This document shows positions 18,321 through 28,164 of a DNA stretch of 64,000 nucleotides, in pieces. This DNA comes from Candidatus Brocadiia bacterium (lineage in GTDB: Bacteria > Planctomycetota > Brocadiia > CAIUPP01). Location: assembly GCA_050015075.1 (NCBI GenBank), contig JBEKCB010000006.1, forward strand, positions 1-64,000. Direction: 5' to 3'. Below the pieces are notes generated by a model. That model did no database searches and was not told the origin of the DNA. It was given only the letters and a program-made list of their open reading frames with translations. Both the position numbers and the translations under genes were made by a program. How positions within the stretch are numbered: position 1 is the first letter of the stretch; each line of letters starts with the position of its first letter.

Positions 18321-20291
18321 CTACCGCTTGGCGATGCCCGAGACCTTGAACCTGACGACGCGCAACCCGCAGACCTTTCCGAAGTGCGCCACGTCGCTCT
18401 GAAGCCGTTGCATCGCCTGCCGGTTAAAAGGGGAACCATTCATATGGAGCGGGCGCGTGAGCGTCACCTCGGCCTGGGTCAGCGCCACCGCGAGCGCGAT
18501 ATCGCCCCATTCGAGGAACCCGGGCACGTGCACGCCCAGCGAGAAGGGATTCTTTCCAACGGTGTACAGGTAGCTGCCCGGCATTCCGGTCAGGTTCAAT
18601 CGCGCGAACCCTCCGTTCACCGCCGCGCAGAAAAGCGCCGCCAATGCGCCTTCGCCCGTGCCGGCCAGGCTCAGCGGGCCTTTGCTCCTCTTCCGCAGGA
18701 ATGACGCCATCAGTTCGATCCCGCGGGCGCGTTCGCCCATGAATGTCCTGCCCATCCACAGGTACGCCCGGGTCGTGTCGTGGTGAATCGCCGTATTGTG
18801 CTCCAGGTCGCCGAAGCTTCCTTCCGTGAAGAGCAGCACTCCCTGGCCGCGCGCCAGCGCCTGGTCCACCAGCGCCGGGTCCGGCGAGCCGGTTTTTCCT
18901 TCCACCTTGGGGATGATGGTGTAACCCGCCTTCGCATCCTTCGGGACGATGAGCAGAAGCGCGAAATGTTCCCCGCTCACGGTGGAGACCACCATCCGTT
19001 GCCAGGTGCGCCCCTCGATGCTCTCCGGCCCCAGGTCGCGCACGTCCCTGAGAATCAGCGCGTCGCCCATGTGCAGGATCCGGCGCAGCTCTTTGCGCTT
19101 GGCCGCCGGGCTCATGGACTTCTTCGCGCGCGCCTCGGCAATCAACTCCTCTCCGCGTTTGCGGCAGAAGACGGCAATGCTCGGAACGATCGGCGGACGC
19201 TTTCCTTTCCGGAAGCACATGAGCTGCTCCTGCGGCAGCGCACGGAAAAATTTCTCCGGTCGCGGCGAGCCGTCGCCGACGCCCTTGAGCCAGCGGTCGA
19301 ACCAGCCGTACATCGCCTCGCGGACCTCGGTCCAGTAACCGTGCGGGAGATTGAAGACCTGGTAGGTCAGTCGCTCATCCGCTCCCAGCGCCTGGTACAC
19401 CGGCCGCGCCCCCACGAACGAGCGGAGCATCTCCGCCGGATAGAATGACGAGTTGGTATCCTTGAGCGCGTTGCAGATCTTCAGCGCCCGCGGCGCGATC
19501 AGCGCCAGGATGCCGGCCATTTCGGTGAGCAATACCGCGCCCGGCAGCGTCTCGCAGATGCAGTTGGAGCCGGCGACGTAAGCCTCGAACGTTCCCACGC
19601 TCACCACCGGCACCGCCGCCGCGAGCCGCTCGTCCATCGCCGCGACCCACATCGTCTGGTTGCCCCCGCCGCTCGCGCCGGTGACGCCGATCCGGTCCGC
19701 GCGGACGCACGGAAGCGATCGCAGGAGGCTGACCCCGCGCATGTTGTCCACGATCTGCATCCCCATCAACGTCTCGCCGATGTCGTAAACCGAAGTGCCC
19801 AGGTGAGCGCCGTGGTACTCGTAATGGCCGTGCGTCGTAGCGCGCTCGCCGGCGCCGAAGGCATCCACGCTCAGACAGACATACTCCTCGCGAGCAAGGT
19901 GGTGTGCGCGTCCCTGCACACGGTCCGCCAGGTGGCCTTCGCCGAAATGCCCGTGCACGCTGAGCACCGCCGGGAACGGCCCGGCGCCGTCGGGGACGTA
20001 GAGACAACTGGTGACGTAGAACCCCGGGCGACTCTGATAGATGACCTTGTCAATTCGATAGCCGTCCATCCGGATCGTCCCGAGTATCCTCATATCCAGG
20101 TCCAGCGTGTCATCCGGCGCAGTCCCGAGGAGTTCCCAGAGTCGCGCGCGCAGCGTCCGGCGCCAGGGCTCCCATTCGGCGCGGCTCGCCGGAAGGCGGC
20201 GCTCGCAGAACATCCGCGTCGCCTCCAGGCTCATTTGAGTATGGGCGTGCGAGATAAAACCCTTGTCCCAGTCGGCAAGCGATCTTTCCAT
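18321..20291 (-). CDS. Two-domain alpha/beta-hydrolase (acetylxylan-esterase-like)
   Basis: IGVTGASGGG nucleophile elbow, VHGH, CICE, ALIAPRAL, PHGY. Confidence 0.8.
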   Translation of the reverse strand: MERSLADWDKGFISHAHTQMSLEATRMFCERRLPASRAEWEPWRRTLRARLWELLGTAPDDTLDLDMRILGTIRMDGYRIDKVIYQSRPGFYVTSCLYVPDGAGPFPAVLSVHGHFGEGHLADRVQGRAHHLAREEYVCLSVDAFGAGERATTHGHYEYHGAHLGTSVYDIGETLMGMQIVDNMRGVSLLRSLPCVRADRIGVTGASGGGNQTMWVAAMDERLAAAVPVVSVGTFEAYVAGSNCICETLPGAVLLTEMAGILALIAPRALKICNALKDTNSSFYPAEMLRSFVGARPVYQALGADERLTYQVFNLPHGYWTEVREAMYGWFDRWLKGVGDGSPRPEKFFRALPQEQLMCFRKGKRPPIVPSIAVFCRKRGEELIAEARAKKSMSPAAKRKELRRILHMGDALILRDVRDLGPESIEGRTWQRMVVSTVSGEHFALLLIVPKDAKAGYTIIPKVEGKTGSPDPALVDQALARGQGVLLFTEGSFGDLEHNTAIHHDTTRAYLWMGRTFMGERARGIELMASFLRKRSKGPLSLAGTGEGALAALFCAAVNGGFARLNLTGMPGSYLYTVGKNPFSLGVHVPGFLEWGDIALAVALTQAEVTLTRPLHMNGSPFNRQAMQRLQSDVAHFGKVCGLRVVRFKVSGIAKR

Positions 20292-20388
20292 GGACGGTAT
20301 TCCTTGTGATATGCGTATTCGCGGGCGCGCCGCCGTGTCGGAGAGATCGTACTGACGCGACCTCTAAAAAGCAAGGTCAAGCGTTCAT

Positions 20389-21957
20389 TCAGACGCCCTG
20401 GGCGGCGGCGCCGTCCGAGCGCGCCGACTCGACCAGGCGCTGTTTCCGATTCCAGAGGCGCTCGCTGAGCGAGACGTGATAGACGTGCGGATTCACGAAC
20501 CGCTTCACGCCCGGGTCGAGCCGGTCCACGTCCGCCTTTCGCCGCGCGCGCATCTCCTCGATCGTCGGCGAATCACCGACGCGCCGGCCTTCCTCCAGGA
20601 CCTTCACCAGCAGCGGTTCGACCGTCTGGATTTCCTCGCGGGCCAGGACCCTGCGCTTGGAAGGTTCCGTCGGATGCTGCAGGATGACCTGCGCCATCTG
20701 TCGGGGATCCTCGTCGGGCAGGCCGAGCAAGTCGGCCGTAGCCAGCCCGCGGCGGTCATAGAGCCGCCAGACGCCCTTTTCGCCGGGGTTGAGAGTCTTC
20801 TCAGGCACCTCGGAGAGTTTGATCGCGGGCGCCCACTGCTTCCCGTCGTGCACCGCGGCGAGCTTGTAAACGCCGTCGAGCGCGGGCGCGCCTTCGGAGC
20901 TGATGAGCCGCGTGCCGACGCCGAACATCAGGCGGCGGATCAGCCGGCCCGGATCCATGCCCCAGCGAGGCGCTTCCTCCTCGATCTGCGTGAGGATCTG
21001 CCAGATGACAAGCTCGTCGAGCTGGTTCGAGAGAAGGATGCACGGATCGGGAAAGCCCGCGGCGTCGAGCATCTTAGCCGCCTGGATGCTCAGGTACGCC
21101 AGGTCGCCCGAGTCGAGGCGGATGCCCGCCGGCCGGTGTCCCTGCCGGCGCAGTTCCTCGAAGACCCGGATGGCGTTCGGTATGCCGCTGCCGAGCGTGT
21201 CCACCGTGTCCACGAGCAGCAGGCAGTCATCGGGATAGACTTCGGCGTAGGCGCGGAATGCGCCGAGTTCGCCCTCGCCGAGGGCCATGAAAGCCTGCAC
21301 CATGCTGTGCGCGTGCGTGCCCTTGGCCGGGAAGCCGAGCGCGCGAGAGATGCCGACGTTCGAGCTGAAGTCCGCTCCGCCGATCAGCGCCGCCCGTGTG
21401 CCGGCGTTGGCGCCCCGCTCCTGCGCGCGGCGCATGCCGAACTCCACCAGCGGCTGCTCATGCGCGCTCTGCCGGATGCGCGCCGCCTTGGTCGCCACCA
21501 GCGTCTGGTAGTTGAGCTGGTTGAGCAGCGCGGTCTCGAGGATCTGCGCCATGGCCAGCGGGCCCTCGACCACGGTGATCGGTTCCTGCGGGTGAACCAC
21601 GCGGCCCTCGGGGACCGCGGCCATGCTGATCCCATCGAAGCCGCCGTTCGAGGCCAGCCAGCCCAGGAAGTCGTCGCCGAAGAGCCGCCGGCCCGTCTGG
21701 CCCGCCTGGCCGCGGAGGTACTCGATATCCTCATTCCGGAACCGGGTCTCGCGCATCCAGTCCAGGAGCCATCCCAGGCCGGCATTGACGCAGTACCCCG
21801 CGCGATGCGAACCGTAGTCGGGGTAGTGCCGGAAGAAGTGCTCGAACCTGGCGCGCTTCTCGTGCAGGCCCTTCCGGAAGTAGAGCTGCGCCATGGTCAG
21901 CTCGTACATGTCCGTGAAGAGGATGCCTTCGGCCATGCGCCGGTCAGCCGAGTTCAT
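20389..21957 (-). CDS. pncB: Nicotinate phosphoribosyltransferase
   Basis: [52 protein letters not shown]. Confidence 0.95.
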
Positions 21958-24221
21958 GGCGCGGAGCCCTTCCGGCCAAGAACCTCTCCGGTCTGCACGA
22001 ACACGGCGCCGGCCCGCGCCATCTCCTCTCGGGCGGCGGCGATGTCGCCGGGCTTGACTTCGATGCCGCGGATAGCGTCCTCGATTACAAAAACGTCGAA
22101 GCCCAGCTTTCGCGCGTCCAGCACAGTGGCTTTCACGCAGTACTCCGTCGCGAGGCCGCCGATCCAGAGCCGCCGGATTCCCCGGGCCTTCAGCGCCGCC
22201 GGCAACTCCGGCGCGTCAAAAGCCGAGTAGGCCTCTTTGGCCGGATCGGTCGCCTTGGAGACCACCAGGTCAATCGCCCGAGTATTAAGATCGGGATGAA
22301 AGTCGGCGCCCGGCGTGTTCTGCACACAGTGGTCCGGCCACGGCCCGCCGGCGCGTTTGAATGAGCAGTGATCGGCCGGATGCCAGTCGCGCGTGGCCAC
22401 GCGGAACAGCTTCTTCACGCGCAGCCACTGGTTCAGCGGCGGCACAACCTCGTCGCCGCGCGGCACCGGCAGCGCTCCGCCGGGGCAGAAATCCCGCTGC
22501 ACGTCCTCGAGGACCAGAGCATCGGTCGCCGTGTTGATCCGCGCAGTTCCGGCGGTCTGCCGAATATGTTCCGGCCGGCCGGTCGCGCCGGCGGCGGGGT
22601 TTTCCGACGCGCCCTGATGGTCCGGCACGCCGGACGCATGCAACCGTATGGCGGCGATCAAGTCCTCGGACGGTCCTCCTTTAGTCAGGTAGGCAACCGC
22701 GCCGGCGTCGCGCAGCGCCGTCGCCACGTCGTTGTCCGTGTGCATGGACAGCCCGATCACCTTGATGTTCGGGCTCGCGGCCAGAATTCGCTTCGTGGCT
22801 TCCACGCCGTTCATCCCAGCGCCGAGGTTGATGTCCATGATGATGACGTCGGGCTGAAGTTTCGCGGCCAGTTCGACGGCGACGGGGCCGTCGGCGGCCT
22901 GGCCAACGACCTCGATATCCGGCTCAAACTGGATGATGCCCGCGAGTCCTTCGCGCATGATCTTGTGATCGTCAACAATGAGGACGTGGCGAACGGCTGT
23001 CTTATCGCGCACGATGATCTTGCCGGCTTGCTCTTCCGTTCCAGCCGTCTCATCCCCAATCCGGGCGTGCGGTTGCGCGGCACCGACGGGGATCGTCAAG
23101 GTGATCGTGGTTCCTTTGCCCGGCGCGGTCGCGATGTACATCTCGCCGCCGATGTGGGCCAGCCTCTGCTCGATGCTGAACAGGCCGAAGCTGATCTCGT
23201 CGGCGCGGCGTTTCTTGAGCAGGTCGGGATCGAACCCCTTGCCCTGATCGCGGACGATCAGTTTGATGCGGTCGTCTTTCGTCCGCAGCAGCATCACCTG
23301 CGCTTCCAGGACGCCGGAATGTTTGACGGCGTTCAGGAGCAGTTCGCGCACGCACTCGAAGAGGAGAAACCGCGTCGCTTCCGTGGCCGGCTCGGCCTTG
23401 TTGTCCGCGTGCAGATGGACTGCGAACTGATTCGTTTGCTGCGTGCGGGAGGCCAGCCAGTTCAGGGCGCCGATCAACCCCGCCGTGTGGAGCACGGGCG
23501 GGCTCAATTCGACCGCCAGCGAGCGGGACGCCTCCAGGGCTTCCTTGAGAATGCCGTCCAGACCCTTTGCCGCGGCTTGTCTCCGATCCGGATTGTTGTC
23601 GCGCTTCAGCCACTCCACCTGCATTCGTGCCGCGACCAGCAATTGCTGGATGTGGTCGTGCAGAATGGTGGACAAGCGCTTGCGCTCGCGTTGCTCCGCC
23701 TGGGTCAGTTCCGTCGCCAGCGCGCGGAGTTGGTCGGCCTGCTGTCGCACTTCTGCGGTTCGTTCAACCACACGCTGTTCGAGCGATTGATTCAACTCGC
23801 GCAACTTCTCCTCGATCTGTTTGCGTTCGATCGCGTAGCGTATGGCGCTGGCGACGGACCGGGCATCGGCGCTCCCCTTGATGAGGTAATCCTGCGCTCC
23901 CTGGCGGATCGCCTCGGCGCCGGTCGTCTCATCGTCGGCGCCGGTCATGATGACGATGGGCAGTCCGGGGAATTCGGTCTGAACGCGCGTGAAAGTGGCA
24001 AGGCCCGTGCTGTCCGGTAACCCCAGGTCCAGCAATACCACGTCGAACTTCTGTTCGCGCAGTTTCGCCATCGCCGTGTCGAGCCGTTCCGCCACCATCA
24101 CCTCATAGCGCGCACCGCGACCCTGGCGCAGGCCGTGCTGGATAAGATGGGCGTCCGAGGGGCTATCTTCGACGAGCAGTACTTTGGCCGTCATAGTGTC
24201 CAATTCAGCGGCATCCTTCAA
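21954..24221 (-). CDS. Hybrid sensor kinase (REC-HisKA_3-HATPase-REC) fused to a C-terminal nicotinamidase (PncA) domain
   Basis: REC1 (LLVEDS...LLDLGLPD); H-box LHDHIQQ; N/G boxes [17 protein letters not shown]; REC2 (LIVDDH...IMDINL); then [33 protein letters not shown]. Alternative start ATG 24194. Confidence 0.85.
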
Positions 24222-24664
24222 CGTCTGGCGGGCAGCGCCACGACCGTGAGCCAGAAACTCTCGATGGATTTCACGATTTCCAGAAAGCGCTCGAAGTTAA
24301 CCGGTTTGGTGACATAGCAGTTGGCGTGAAGCTTGTAGGAACGAATGATGTCCTCTTCAGCCTTGGAGGTCGTCAGGACGACCACCGGAATCATTTTGAG
24401 GTCCGGGTCGTCCTTCAGCTCTGCGAGGACTTCGCGCCCGTCTTTACGCGGGAGGTTCAGGTCGAGCAGGATCAGGTCCGGCTGCTCCGCCTGCGAATAG
24501 GCGCCCTGGCGCCGCAGGAACTCCATGGCCTGGACGCCGTCCTGCACGTGGAAGACCTTGTTGGCCATCTTGGCCGTTTTCAACGCGGTCAGAGTCAGCT
24601 CGGCGTCGGTGGGGCTGTCCTCGACCAGCAGAATCTGAATCGGTCGCACGGTTGTCGGCGTCAT
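24218..24664 (-). CDS. Single-domain response regulator (Rcp1-like)
   Basis: [31 protein letters not shown]. Confidence 0.92.
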
Positions 24665-27594
24665 TCGTCGCTCCTCTTGTCAAAAATGGTGAAGAAGAAA
24701 GTCGTTCCCTCTCCGGGCTGCGACTCAAACCAGATTCTACCAGAATGCCGTTCAACAATCTTCTTGCACACGGCAAGGCCGATCCCCGTGCCGGGATACT
24801 CAAGGCGCGAATGGAGTCGCTGAAAGATCAGAAAAATCCGGTCATGATACTTCGGCTCGATGCCGATCCCGTTGTCGCGGACGCTGAATACCCATGCGTC
24901 TTTCTCCCGCCTGGCCCCGATGTGGATGTCCGGCGCGCGTGGACCGTGGAACTTGATGGCGTTGCCGACGAGGTTCTGCAGCAATTGAACCATTTGGGAC
25001 GGGTCGGCCGCGATCGTCGGCAGCGGATCGCTGCGAATGACCGCGCGGCTCGCCTCGATGGCGGCGCTCAGGTTGCCCACGGCGTCGTCCAGCGCCTGCT
25101 TCATGTCCACAGGCGTGCGGGCTCCGCCCCGGGAGCCTACGCGCGAGTAGGTCAGCAGGTCGTTGATCAGCGCCTGCATCCGTTCGGCCCCCTCGACGAC
25201 ATGGCCGATGTACTTCTGGCCGTCGGCATCCAGCCTGTCCTTAAGCTGCTGCTTGAGAAGGGACGCGAAGCCACCCACGGCCCTGAGCGGCTCCTGGAGG
25301 TCATGGGAGGCGACGTAGGCAAACTGCTCAAGGTCCTTGTTGGAGCGCGACAACTCGGCCGCGGTCTTCTCCAGTTCCGAGGTCCGCTGCTTGACCAGTT
25401 CCTCCAGTTGAAGGCGGTATCGGGCCAACTCCTGTTCCATCTTGTTCCGCTCTGTGACATCGCGGGCGGCGGCGAAAACGCCTTGCACTTCGCCGGCCTC
25501 ATTCCGGTAAATCGTGGCGTTGTACAGGACATCGGCGGTGCGGCCGGCACTGTGACGGACCGTCAGAGGGTAGTCGCGCACAAAACCGTCCGATAGCACC
25601 TTCCGATACCCCGCGCCGGCCCTTTCGGGATCGGTGAAGTAGCTGGAGAAATCGGTGCCGATCAGACGCTGGCGCGGAATGCCCGTGGCTTCCTCCGTCG
25701 CCTTGTTCACGTCGGTGATCTTTCCGTCAGGGCTGATGGTGACCAGCGGGTCGAGGCTGGCTTCGAGCAGGCTGCGGGCGTAGAGCGAGGCGACGCGCAG
25801 TTGGGCCTCCATCCGGTTGTGTTCAGTCACGTCGCGGGCGGCGGCGAACACGCCCTGCACCGCGCCCGCTTCGTTGCGATAAACCGTGGCGTTATACAGC
25901 ACGTCGGTGGTGCGGCCGGAGGCGTGGCGGACGGTCAGCGGATAATCGCGCACCGTGCCGTCGCGCAGCACTTGCTGGTAACCGGCGTTGGCCTTCGATG
26001 GCTCGGTGAAGTAGTCGGAGAAGTGGGTGCCGACGAGTTGCGCGCGTGGCACACCCGTCGCCGACTCCGTCGCCGCGTTGACGTCGGTGACGTTTCCATC
26101 GGGGCTGATGGTGACCAGCGGGTCAAGGCTGGCTTCGAGCAGGCTGCGGGCGTAAAGGGCTGTCGCGCGCAACTCCTCCGTGCGCTCAACCACACGCTTT
26201 TCGAGCGTCAGGTTCATCTCGCGCAACGCCTCCTCGGCGGACTTTTGCCGGGTGATGTCGGTGCTGACTTCCAGGATGTCCAGCGGCTTGCCGCGTTCAT
26301 CGCGGCGCAGTGCCCAGAGGAGCGCCACAGGAATCCGGGTCCCGTCCTTGGTGCGGCGAGTCACTTCGCCTTCCCAGCGGCCGTTCAACTCCAGATCGGC
26401 GTGAATCTGCTCCAGCGGCCGGTCGAAATGCGTCTGCAGCAATTCTGAAGCAGGCTTGCCCTCGGTCTCCTCGGCATCATAGCCATAAAGCCTGCGGTTA
26501 CCATCGCTCCAGCGGATGATGCGGTCATCCAGACTCCGGGCCAACAGGTTGCCGAGGTTCACCAGGGCCAGTTCCTTTTCCTGCGCGGCGCCGACGACTT
26601 CGGCTACGCGGGCGCGGCGCAAGCGCTCCGCCAGGAGGCTCAGGAAAATGCCTGCGCCGGCAAAGATGCCCAACGATACAGCGTCGGCCGCATGGGCGAT
26701 ACTGAACGACCCTGTCGGCGCAACGAACCAATAGTCGGCTGCCAGCACGGTCAGGACCGTGGCCACGACTCCTGGTCCGCCGCCGGCGACCGTCGCCGCC
26801 AGGAGGACCGCCGGATAGAAGGTGATGAACATGGGCACAGGCCCGACATGCTGCTCCAACCAGCTTTTCAGCCAGGCGGCCAGGGCAATGACCGCCGCCG
26901 CGAAGGCGTACCGGACGGCGGTTCCGGGCCATTTCCTGCCGGCGCCGCCTAATCGCAGATTACGATCTGCCAGCCGCACCGTGCGTATGAGGATGACCCC
27001 CGCAACCCCCAGAATGGCCAGCGACAGCAGCACGCCCAAGCCCAGCGTCAGCATGCTTTGCCGGGCGACCTTGCCGGCATCGCGACTCCGCGCGTCCAGC
27101 AAACGGTTCTCACGCTGCTCCATCACCGCGACGAGGTCCCGGATTTCGTCCGTGATGCGCTCGCCTTTCCCGCTGCTAATGATCGGCAAGGCCGCCTCCA
27201 AGCCGCCTTCCCTGCGATGCTGGATGAAATCCTTAAGAATATCGAGTTTTTCGCTGCAAAGCTTCTGAAGTTGCTCAAGGTCTCTCTGTTGATCGGGGTT
27301 GTCCCGGGTCAAGTATTTGACCGAGGCGACGTCGTTCTGAAACTCCGCGATGGCCGAGTCATACGGCGCCAGGAATTGCGCATCGCCGGTCAGAACAAAG
27401 CCTCGCGCGCCGGTTTCGGCCATCATGACCACCGATTGAACGCGCTCCAGGTTCTGCAGCACCTCGTGAGTATGGTCCACCCAGTCCTTGCTCTCGGTCA
27501 ACCGCTGGATAACCAGGTAGGATCGGACGCCCACGAAGCTGATGATCAGCAGCCCCAGGATTAACGCGACGGTGATTTTCGCTCCAAGTTTCAT
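24661..27594 (-). CDS. Membrane sensor histidine kinase: CHASE3, DUF4118-like TM block, 3 PAS, HisKA-HATPase
   Basis: [11 protein letters not shown]...LTRDNPDQQ (CHASE3); [10 protein letters not shown] block; PAS repeats; [36 protein letters not shown]. Confidence 0.92.
25450..26160 (-). repeat. Intragenic tandem PAS duplication (offset 372 bp)
   Basis: [21 protein letters not shown]...AARDVTE occurs twice; GGGCTGATGGTGACCAGCGGGTC at 25730 and 26102. Confidence 0.85.
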
Positions 27595-28164
27595 TTAGAG
27601 TTCTCCAAGGCCATCGAACTCCTCTCTAACGTCCAGACCTGCGCTGCGACAAACGACGAGGGGTTGTACGGTCGCTGATTTCGCGCATGGTCATGCGGTC
27701 CTCGTTCTTTCCGGACGGGCGCCACAGTTTCCCGCCGGAAGATTGCGTGATACCGCGACGCTTTCCGCCAGCACGCGGAAGCTTTTTTCACTGCCTGGCG
27801 CGGACGCGCAAGATCCGGTTTTTACGTTCGCTGCCTTCGCACGCGCGCCATTCCTGGACTTGTTCGTTTGCATGGCTGGGTTCTCCTTTCAGGCGCTTCA
27901 CATTGCTGAATGTGCCGATGCCACGAGCTTTCCCCTGCCCGGCGACGCCGACGTCAGCGCGATTATCCCACAATTGCGTTCGTTGATCCAACATGGAAGG
28001 CGGCCTCATCGGCGTCATGCCGGCGCCTCGCAGCGGGGTTTGTCCTATGCGAAGAGCGGGGAGACACCCGATTGTTTGCCGCCGTCGCTCTGCTAGAATG
28101 CCGGACGTGGGGCGAGAACTGGACGTCGGGGAATGCGGGGGCAAACCCGGACGGCCGGATAAAA

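Follow-up and report, generated by a model that had tools for sequence, protein, structure and literature searches.

What does a nicotinamidase do at the end of a histidine kinase, and does the kinase control it? The question is raised by an open reading frame (ORF) on contig JBEKCB010000006.1 of a Candidatus Brocadiia bacterium from peat (genome G000, 93.6% complete), within the 64,000 nt stretch of DNA that was analysed as a whole and is here called the window. On the minus strand, this ORF joins two receiver domains (REC1 and REC2), a histidine kinase core and the nicotinamidase PncA in one polypeptide, and it is followed by pncB. PncA converts nicotinamide to nicotinate and PncB converts nicotinate to nicotinic acid mononucleotide (NaMN), and both belong to the salvage of nicotinamide adenine dinucleotide (NAD). 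We conclude that the architecture is real and undescribed, and give a probability of about one half to the view that it is a read-through fusion, in which NAD salvage is tied to a signalling operon by co-expression and PncA is an autonomous passenger, not switched by phosphorylation. A preliminary description of the locus had proposed PncA as the output of the cascade, or as a source of feedback on the kinase; both are possible, and the computed evidence supports neither. The fusion, its parts and pncB are as follows.

21954..24221, minus strand: fusion ORF, REC1-HisKA_3-HATPase-REC2-linker-PncA, 755 amino acids (aa) from a TTG start (ORF list, Pfam, NCBIfam)
23832..24185, minus strand: REC1, input receiver of the hybrid kinase, about residues 13-130 (first of two Response_reg stretches in Pfam)
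23085..23687, minus strand: kinase core, HisKA_3 (residues 179-244) and HATPase_c (residues 287-379) (Pfam)
22644..22985, minus strand: REC2, NarL/UvrY-like receiver, residues 413-526 (Pfam; NCBIfam UvrY/NarL receiver matches)
22521..22643, minus strand: linker, residues 527-567, without an ATG and with one in-frame GTG at codon 532
21957..22520, minus strand: PncA nicotinamidase domain, residues 568-755 (Isochorismatase match, residues 568-741; Pfam PF00857)
20389..21957, minus strand: pncB, nicotinate phosphoribosyltransferase, 522 aa (NCBIfam equivalog NF006695)

The kinase core is of the HisKA_3 type, with HisKA_3 (PF07730) at 34.2 bits (cut-off 24), its His lying in the motif LHDH, and HATPase_c (PF02518) at 49.5 bits (cut-off 26.4). 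NCBIfam matches to REC1 span residues 13-150, and both receivers carry an acidic pair, an acceptor Asp, a Ser/Thr and a Lys, the REC1 motifs read in the sequence including YLIKG. REC2 (413-526) lies directly N-terminal to the Isochorismatase match (568-741) in the same chain, which is the layout of a response regulator with an enzymatic output. The single 755-aa ORF reported earlier holds as an open frame, but its length hinges on the TTG start; gene callers took an in-frame ATG at codon 10 instead, giving 746 aa (P0005/P0137).

The junction between kinase and nicotinamidase is not a product of assembly. Contigs of four further peat-metagenome runs, which come from different studies and may share one sampling campaign, cover positions 21700-23300 with no indels, joints or stops. 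One of them (X8 record 25) matches 21771-22877 with 0 differences, in two more (X6 record 12, X7 record 21) the linker is crossed with 0 differences, and the fourth (X10 record 6) covers 22371-23300 with 19 substitutions and 0 gaps. The read variants listed, when applied to the ORF, introduce no stop and few amino-acid changes. Nor is the fusion unique to this assembly, since it also occurs in the sister species G001 (full length, stop-free, 82% identical, gene order unchanged) and in the lineage of two further proteins, P0138 and P0139. P0006, 88% identical across the searched residues 500-755, is a member of the G001 cluster and no separate lineage. The fusion is therefore one genuine open frame without assembly error. 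A 504-aa protein in the cluster of G001's protein, P0128, has an out-of-frame tail inside REC2, which reflects either a frameshift in that copy or misassembly in another record of the G001 lineage.

Comparison of G000 with G001 gave ratios of nonsynonymous to synonymous substitution rates (dN/dS) of 0.12 for REC1, 0.19 for HisKA_3, 0.29 for HATPase, 0.20 for REC2 and 0.22 for PncA; judged by these ratios, the kinase and PncA halves are both under purifying selection. The ratio for linker residues 532-565 is 0.98 (34 aligned codons, no indel). That the reading frame has been retained is uninformative for either a passenger or a controlled enzyme, since the cell depends on translation of its sole PncA: with the PncA domain as query, the fused copy is the only nicotinamidase match in G000. 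NadA is also encoded in G000, so that de novo NAD synthesis is probably present, and no match to the SIR2 family was found in this genome.

The nicotinamidase domain looks complete. It scores 98.7 bits against Pfam PF00857 (cut-off 27) and 162.4 bits against NCBIfam PRK11609, just below the cut-off of 174, and among solved structures the last 199 residues find their best match in Pyrococcus horikoshii PncA (1ilw/1im5, E 6e-60). The motifs DVQRDF, VSK, TEYCV, DWH and DHC are all retained, as the preliminary description had it. In the alignment with 1ilw, the D of LEDVQRDF, the K of VVSKAT, the C of ATEYCV and the histidines of DWH and DHC/PDHC (WPDHCVQ) fall on positions which we take to be the catalytic Asp-Lys-Cys triad and the zinc (metal) Asp/His/His site of nicotinamidase PncA, so that both the triad and the metal site are in place. 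D57, H59, H63 and H76 of the domain, and the Cys, are invariant in 20 homologs. A different pattern is seen in PncA homologs at L116:1527-2075, L021:6001-6546 and L023:6001-6552, two of them from Nitrospira/Nitrospirales metagenome-assembled genome records, where His replaces the catalytic Asp (VHVQRDF or VHLQNDF) and Ser or Gly replaces the Lys, with the metal ligands and the Cys kept; on their residues, these may be altered-function or inactive relatives of nicotinamidase.

The origin of the fusion is best read from the relatives of its two halves. On the kinase side, a paralogous cassette in the same genome (G000:C19:12386-17600, equivalent to L107:5402-10581) encodes a PAS kinase of 719 aa, a REC-GGDEF protein of 294 aa and a REC-HisKA_3-HATPase-REC kinase of 529 aa, and a cassette in G002:C100 encodes a PAS kinase, a REC protein and a 533-aa REC-HisKA_3-HATPase-REC kinase. 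A convergent gene follows each. A third relative, in G002:C37, is a multi-PAS version with kinase and REC2 75% identical (REC2 alone 85%), and stops 5 residues past REC2, ahead of a convergent helicase gene. The unfused proteins of L107, L108 and L003 stop within about 5-9 residues of a conserved AAIR motif, and in every unfused relative examined, sister-genus cassettes included, the kinase terminates just past REC2, without an output. These terminal-receiver hybrid kinases, all from the same family of genomes, are 50-75% identical to the window protein over kinase and REC2, and like it they belong to a cassette of three genes, the other two being a sensor kinase and a small receiver; they differ in stopping a few residues past REC2 (529-533 aa), whereas the window protein continues through the linker into PncA. 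The three-gene cassette type recurs with differing middle genes.

On the nicotinamidase side, relatives with a stand-alone PncA of 196-204 aa and 83-91% identity are known (P0126/P0127, P0143-P0147). In one of these loci (L114), pncA has a spacer of about 440 nt upstream and a 4-base overlap onto pncB. The enzyme, as in P. horikoshii, and its overlap with pncB are the same there as in the window; the window pncA, by contrast, has no start of its own and makes up the last 190 residues of a signalling protein of 755 aa. The last 14 or so residues of the linker match the native N-terminus of stand-alone P0126, and the linker has the same length in G000, G001, P0138 and P0139. Within the genus-level clade to which the fusion is confined, stand-alone pncA is at least as common as the fusion. 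A tree of 47 PncA sequences places the fused forms together with the stand-alone ones in a single clade of 13 rows (100/100) with an unresolved base; P0074, P0082 and P0119, three other fusions considered below, are on long branches where their placement is unsure. Farther out, G002, G003 and G004 gave no PncA match, or very weak isochorismatase-family ones (best E 2.1e-5, 27% identity), and the identity of pncB elsewhere in the class does not exceed 49%. The coordinates in G037, G027 and G007 put the PncA match downstream of pncB, a sign that the order of pncA and pncB is reversed in those genomes. By this distribution among sequenced relatives, the fusion is evolutionarily young and narrowly distributed.

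A third form of the fusion is found in P0138 and P0139 (810 aa, JGI/ENA proteins) and at locus L113, with a PAS domain in the place of REC1. From HisKA_3 through HATPase, REC2 and the linker to PncA it is 91-93% identical to the window protein and is then followed by pncB, the 4-base overlaps being kept. The gene overlapping the fusion start by 4 bases (L113:2-535) is here not an Rcp1-like receiver, as it is in the window, but encodes the C-terminus of a SpoIIE/PP2C-type phosphatase.

A read-through origin is the simplest history: output-less kinases of this type exist, stand-alone pncA-pncB operons exist, and the end of the linker matches the N-terminus of P0126. The linker itself has the look of spacer that is now translated, its dN/dS of 0.98 standing against 0.12-0.29 in the domains. 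The starting point would have been a cassette of sensor kinase, small receiver and REC-HisKA_3-HATPase-REC hybrid kinase ending right past its second receiver, which came to sit immediately upstream of a pncA-pncB salvage operon. Loss of the hybrid-kinase stop would then have turned about 30 spacer codons into a flexible tether, with pncA losing its own start. The product would be bifunctional, a receiver-gated kinase attached to a complete and autonomous nicotinamidase which, with translationally coupled PncB, would carry nicotinamide through nicotinate to NaMN. PncA and PncB would be made only when, and in proportion as, the signalling operon is expressed.

The strongest competitor, which we regard as possible though less probable than the passenger, is a one-polypeptide two-component system in which phosphorylated REC2 alters the activity of the tethered nicotinamidase, so that NAD salvage flux is set post-translationally. 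The CHASE3/PAS sensor kinase encoded upstream would phosphorylate REC1, and REC1 in its phosphorylated form would activate the HisKA_3 kinase, which would pass phosphate to REC2 in cis; the switch could work by occlusion and release of the enzyme or by changed domain pairing. Four observations weigh against an autonomous passenger, and the first three of them also speak for such control. PncA is the sole recognisable output-type domain (Pfam) in the four genes of the operon. The body of kinase, REC2, PncA and pncB is kept in three lineages, in one of which both the input module and the upstream gene have been swapped, so that the unit has been retained with two different input modules; selection acting on the unit would at least agree with this persistence. 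REC2 retains the full S/T-Y/F switch set, and PncA is found C-terminal in four independent types of signalling protein (HisKA_3 kinase, HisKA kinase, GGDEF-EAL and Ser/Thr kinase). The order of REC2 and PncA is moreover that of receiver-controlled enzymes.

How much the receiver itself can say is seen from its residues and its predicted structure. In an alignment of 10 REC2 sequences (A1), D13, D14, D59, S88 and K110 are invariant and the beta5 tyrosine, Y107, nearly so; the acceptor Asp is the D of IIMDINL. According to PMC9981736 (section 11), an acidic pair, an acceptor Asp, a Ser/Thr, a Lys and a beta5 Tyr/Phe are the set used by allosteric terminal receivers. The acceptor Asp, Ser, Lys and beta5 Tyr of REC2 are thus intact, and its best receiver matches are to regulators of the NarL/UvrY type, as control by phosphorylation would have it. 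However, the relatives that have no output domain carry identical key residues in REC2, and therefore the residue set does not discriminate between the readings; a REC2 so widespread without any output domain also argues that its ancestral role did not involve PncA. In an AlphaFold2 model of residues 405-755, both domains are well folded, with a mean predicted local distance difference test (pLDDT) score of 85 and a predicted template modelling (pTM) score of 0.58. REC2 is mostly at a pLDDT of 85-96 and linker residues 531-559 are below 50. From these last values and the pTM, the linker is predicted to be a flexible tether, with no defined docking of REC2 and PncA in the model. A linker of about 30 disordered residues evolving neutrally, and the lack of defined packing between the domains at this pTM, both count against control by REC2.

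The wider survey of PncA fusions points in both directions. Among 120 proteins of 415-1322 aa listed as matching this PncA, signalling domains occur in 7: P0005 and P0006 (the window fusion type), P0074 (PAS-HisKA-HATPase-REC-PncA), P0082/P0117 (MASE4-GGDEF-EAL-PncA) and P0119/P0120 (Ser/Thr kinase-PncA). We judge that random upstream neighbours in such genomes could bring in a comparable share, so that 7 among the 120 does not stand out clearly, which tells against a controlled output. The remaining long proteins listed are mostly fusions to PncB, NAD synthase, QueG or ArgH. The statement that PncA is normally stand-alone must be qualified accordingly: stand-alone relatives do exist, but so do many long PncA fusions in the database, and this variety of unrelated partners favours the passenger. 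Fusions to QueG (epoxyqueuosine reductase; P0010, P0013, P0019, P0024 and others) and to ArgH (argininosuccinate lyase; P0009, P0011, P0015, P0020) recur, each from several sources, and a functional link in these pairings is not obvious.

P0074 is the one independent parallel to the window protein and counts in favour of control by REC2, as it has the same kinase-REC-PncA logic and the same motifs. Its separate origin follows from a kinase of the HisKA rather than the HisKA_3 type and from a PncA part with no more than 49% identity (best BLASTP segment). A protein of 818 aa that is 92% identical to it, P0263, terminates at the receiver, without PncA. By these comparisons the kinase-REC-PncA arrangement has two or more origins, each at the tips of the tree, and that both known forms are such late derivatives counts against control by REC2. 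Searches for shorter versions agree with this. With REC2-linker-PncA as the query against proteins of 193-615 aa, none of the 120 best matches combines a receiver with PncA, all carrying PF00857 alone, so that a REC-PncA regulator is absent from these best shorter matches; with the REC-PncA part of P0074 as the query, only P0074 itself combines the two among the 120 matches listed. A receiver-output pairing conserved as a family across taxa was not found, the pairing being confined to G000, G001, the P0138/P0139 lineage and the independent P0074.

An improbable alternative reverses the direction of information, with PncA as an input: the binding or turnover of nicotinamide would alter phosphorylation or dephosphorylation of REC2, and the cascade would sense a product of NAD breakdown. 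The C-terminal position beside a receiver permits such a role, and no other ligand-linked cytoplasmic domain lies near REC2. Against this, the catalytic and metal residues are fully retained and the dN/dS of 0.22 is as in a working enzyme, pncB shows the translational coupling of the stand-alone operon, the linker is disordered in the model, and the operon shows no downstream output for nicotinamide sensing to control.

Least credible of all is an assembly or annotation artefact, or a PncA made separately from an internal start, for although the preliminary description was right that the linker has no in-frame ATG, its in-frame GTG at codon 532 (22626-22628) makes internal initiation compatible with the sequence, and P0128 loses its frame inside REC2, yet the junction is open in four other runs, in G001 and in P0138/P0139, the read variants listed bring in no stop, no Shine-Dalgarno-like purine run precedes the GTG, and the native ATG of stand-alone PncA has been lost in the fusion.

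The remaining two genes of the operon lie upstream of the fusion.

24661..27594, minus strand: sensor histidine kinase, 977 aa, with CHASE3, membrane DUF4118, three PAS stretches, HisKA and HATPase_c (Pfam)
24218..24664, minus strand: single-domain receiver, Rcp1-like, 148 aa, with Response_reg (75.3 bits) as its sole domain (Pfam)

The four minus-strand genes each overlap their neighbour by 4 bases, as read in the sequence at the three junctions: the kinase stop overlaps the receiver ATG (ATGA), the receiver and fusion overlap in TTGA, and the pncB ATG lies over the fusion TGA (ATGA). These overlaps and the domain architecture assigned by Pfam and NCBIfam bear out the earlier account of the operon. 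The 148-aa protein is an Rcp1-type single-domain receiver, matching the solved structures of Rcp1 (1i3c, second-best match, E 2.8e-47) and RcpA (1k68, E 3.1e-46) over residues 7-146. The last gene is recognised as pncB by two equivalog models, NF006695 (607.9 bits, cut-off 469) and TIGR01513 (455.2 bits, cut-off 297.4), and its product is 97% identical between the window and G001. A scan of positions 20100-28000 gave 0 promoter-like sites, and 5 terminator-like sites where shuffled sequences lead one to expect 6.7.

The operon had been called a phosphorelay, a loose term because no Hpt domain is present in the four proteins (Pfam); Hpt matches in G000 are only on other contigs, within open frames of 787-1001 aa. 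A kinase cascade stands, but as far as the domains tell it is a kinase-to-kinase cascade and not a classical His-Asp-His-Asp phosphorelay. In the 977-aa CHASE3 kinase, two adjacent PAS units are almost identical to each other. The G001 ortholog (L110:5821-8433) has 870 aa, 107 fewer, and two PAS stretches (Pfam) against three in the window, suggesting that a PAS unit was recently duplicated in tandem in the lineage of the window.

The window fusion resembles the stand-alone pncA-pncB salvage pair joined to a terminal-receiver hybrid kinase. If PncA is coupled to the receiver, its models would be receiver-controlled enzymes (CheB, PleD/WspR, RpfG) and the one-polypeptide hybrid two-component systems of Bacteroides. 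In the former, the receiver is N-terminal to the catalytic domain in one chain, and in the latter the kinase and the receiver-output are in one polypeptide, both as in the window fusion. These systems are old and widespread, and their control by phosphorylation has been shown. The window family, in contrast, consists of a few tip lineages, and nicotinamidase is only a putative output. PncA is likewise a module in other fusions, among them a PncA-PncB 'modular protein' (Nitrospina gracilis; Patulibacter), PncA-NAD synthase, PncA-QueG and PncA-ArgH, but the partners there are mostly enzymes of the NAD pathway or unrelated enzymes. The known control of bacterial NAD salvage acts on transcription, by NadR, NiaR and NrtR, and we know of no described case of a phosphotransfer cascade acting on a salvage enzyme. 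A literature search with subscription journals outside its coverage found no description of a kinase- or receiver-nicotinamidase fusion, in agreement with the earlier remark that no example was on record.

If REC2 does control PncA, nicotinamidase would join the response-regulator outputs as a new class, and bacterial NAD salvage would have its first example of phospho-control. Both the clearance of nicotinamide and the flux of NAD salvage would be set at the level of the enzyme by an extracellular signal received by CHASE3 (or, in the variant, by a signal at PAS), and the PncA fusions to HisKA kinases, GGDEF-EAL proteins and Ser/Thr kinases would be convergent versions of the same solution. 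Testing is unusually straightforward here, as close relatives provide natural controls, namely unfused PncA (83-91% identical), the kinase without PncA and the fusion with its input swapped. If PncA is a mere passenger, the locus would still show, in a clean and datable form, how two genes fuse when the spacer between them is read through.

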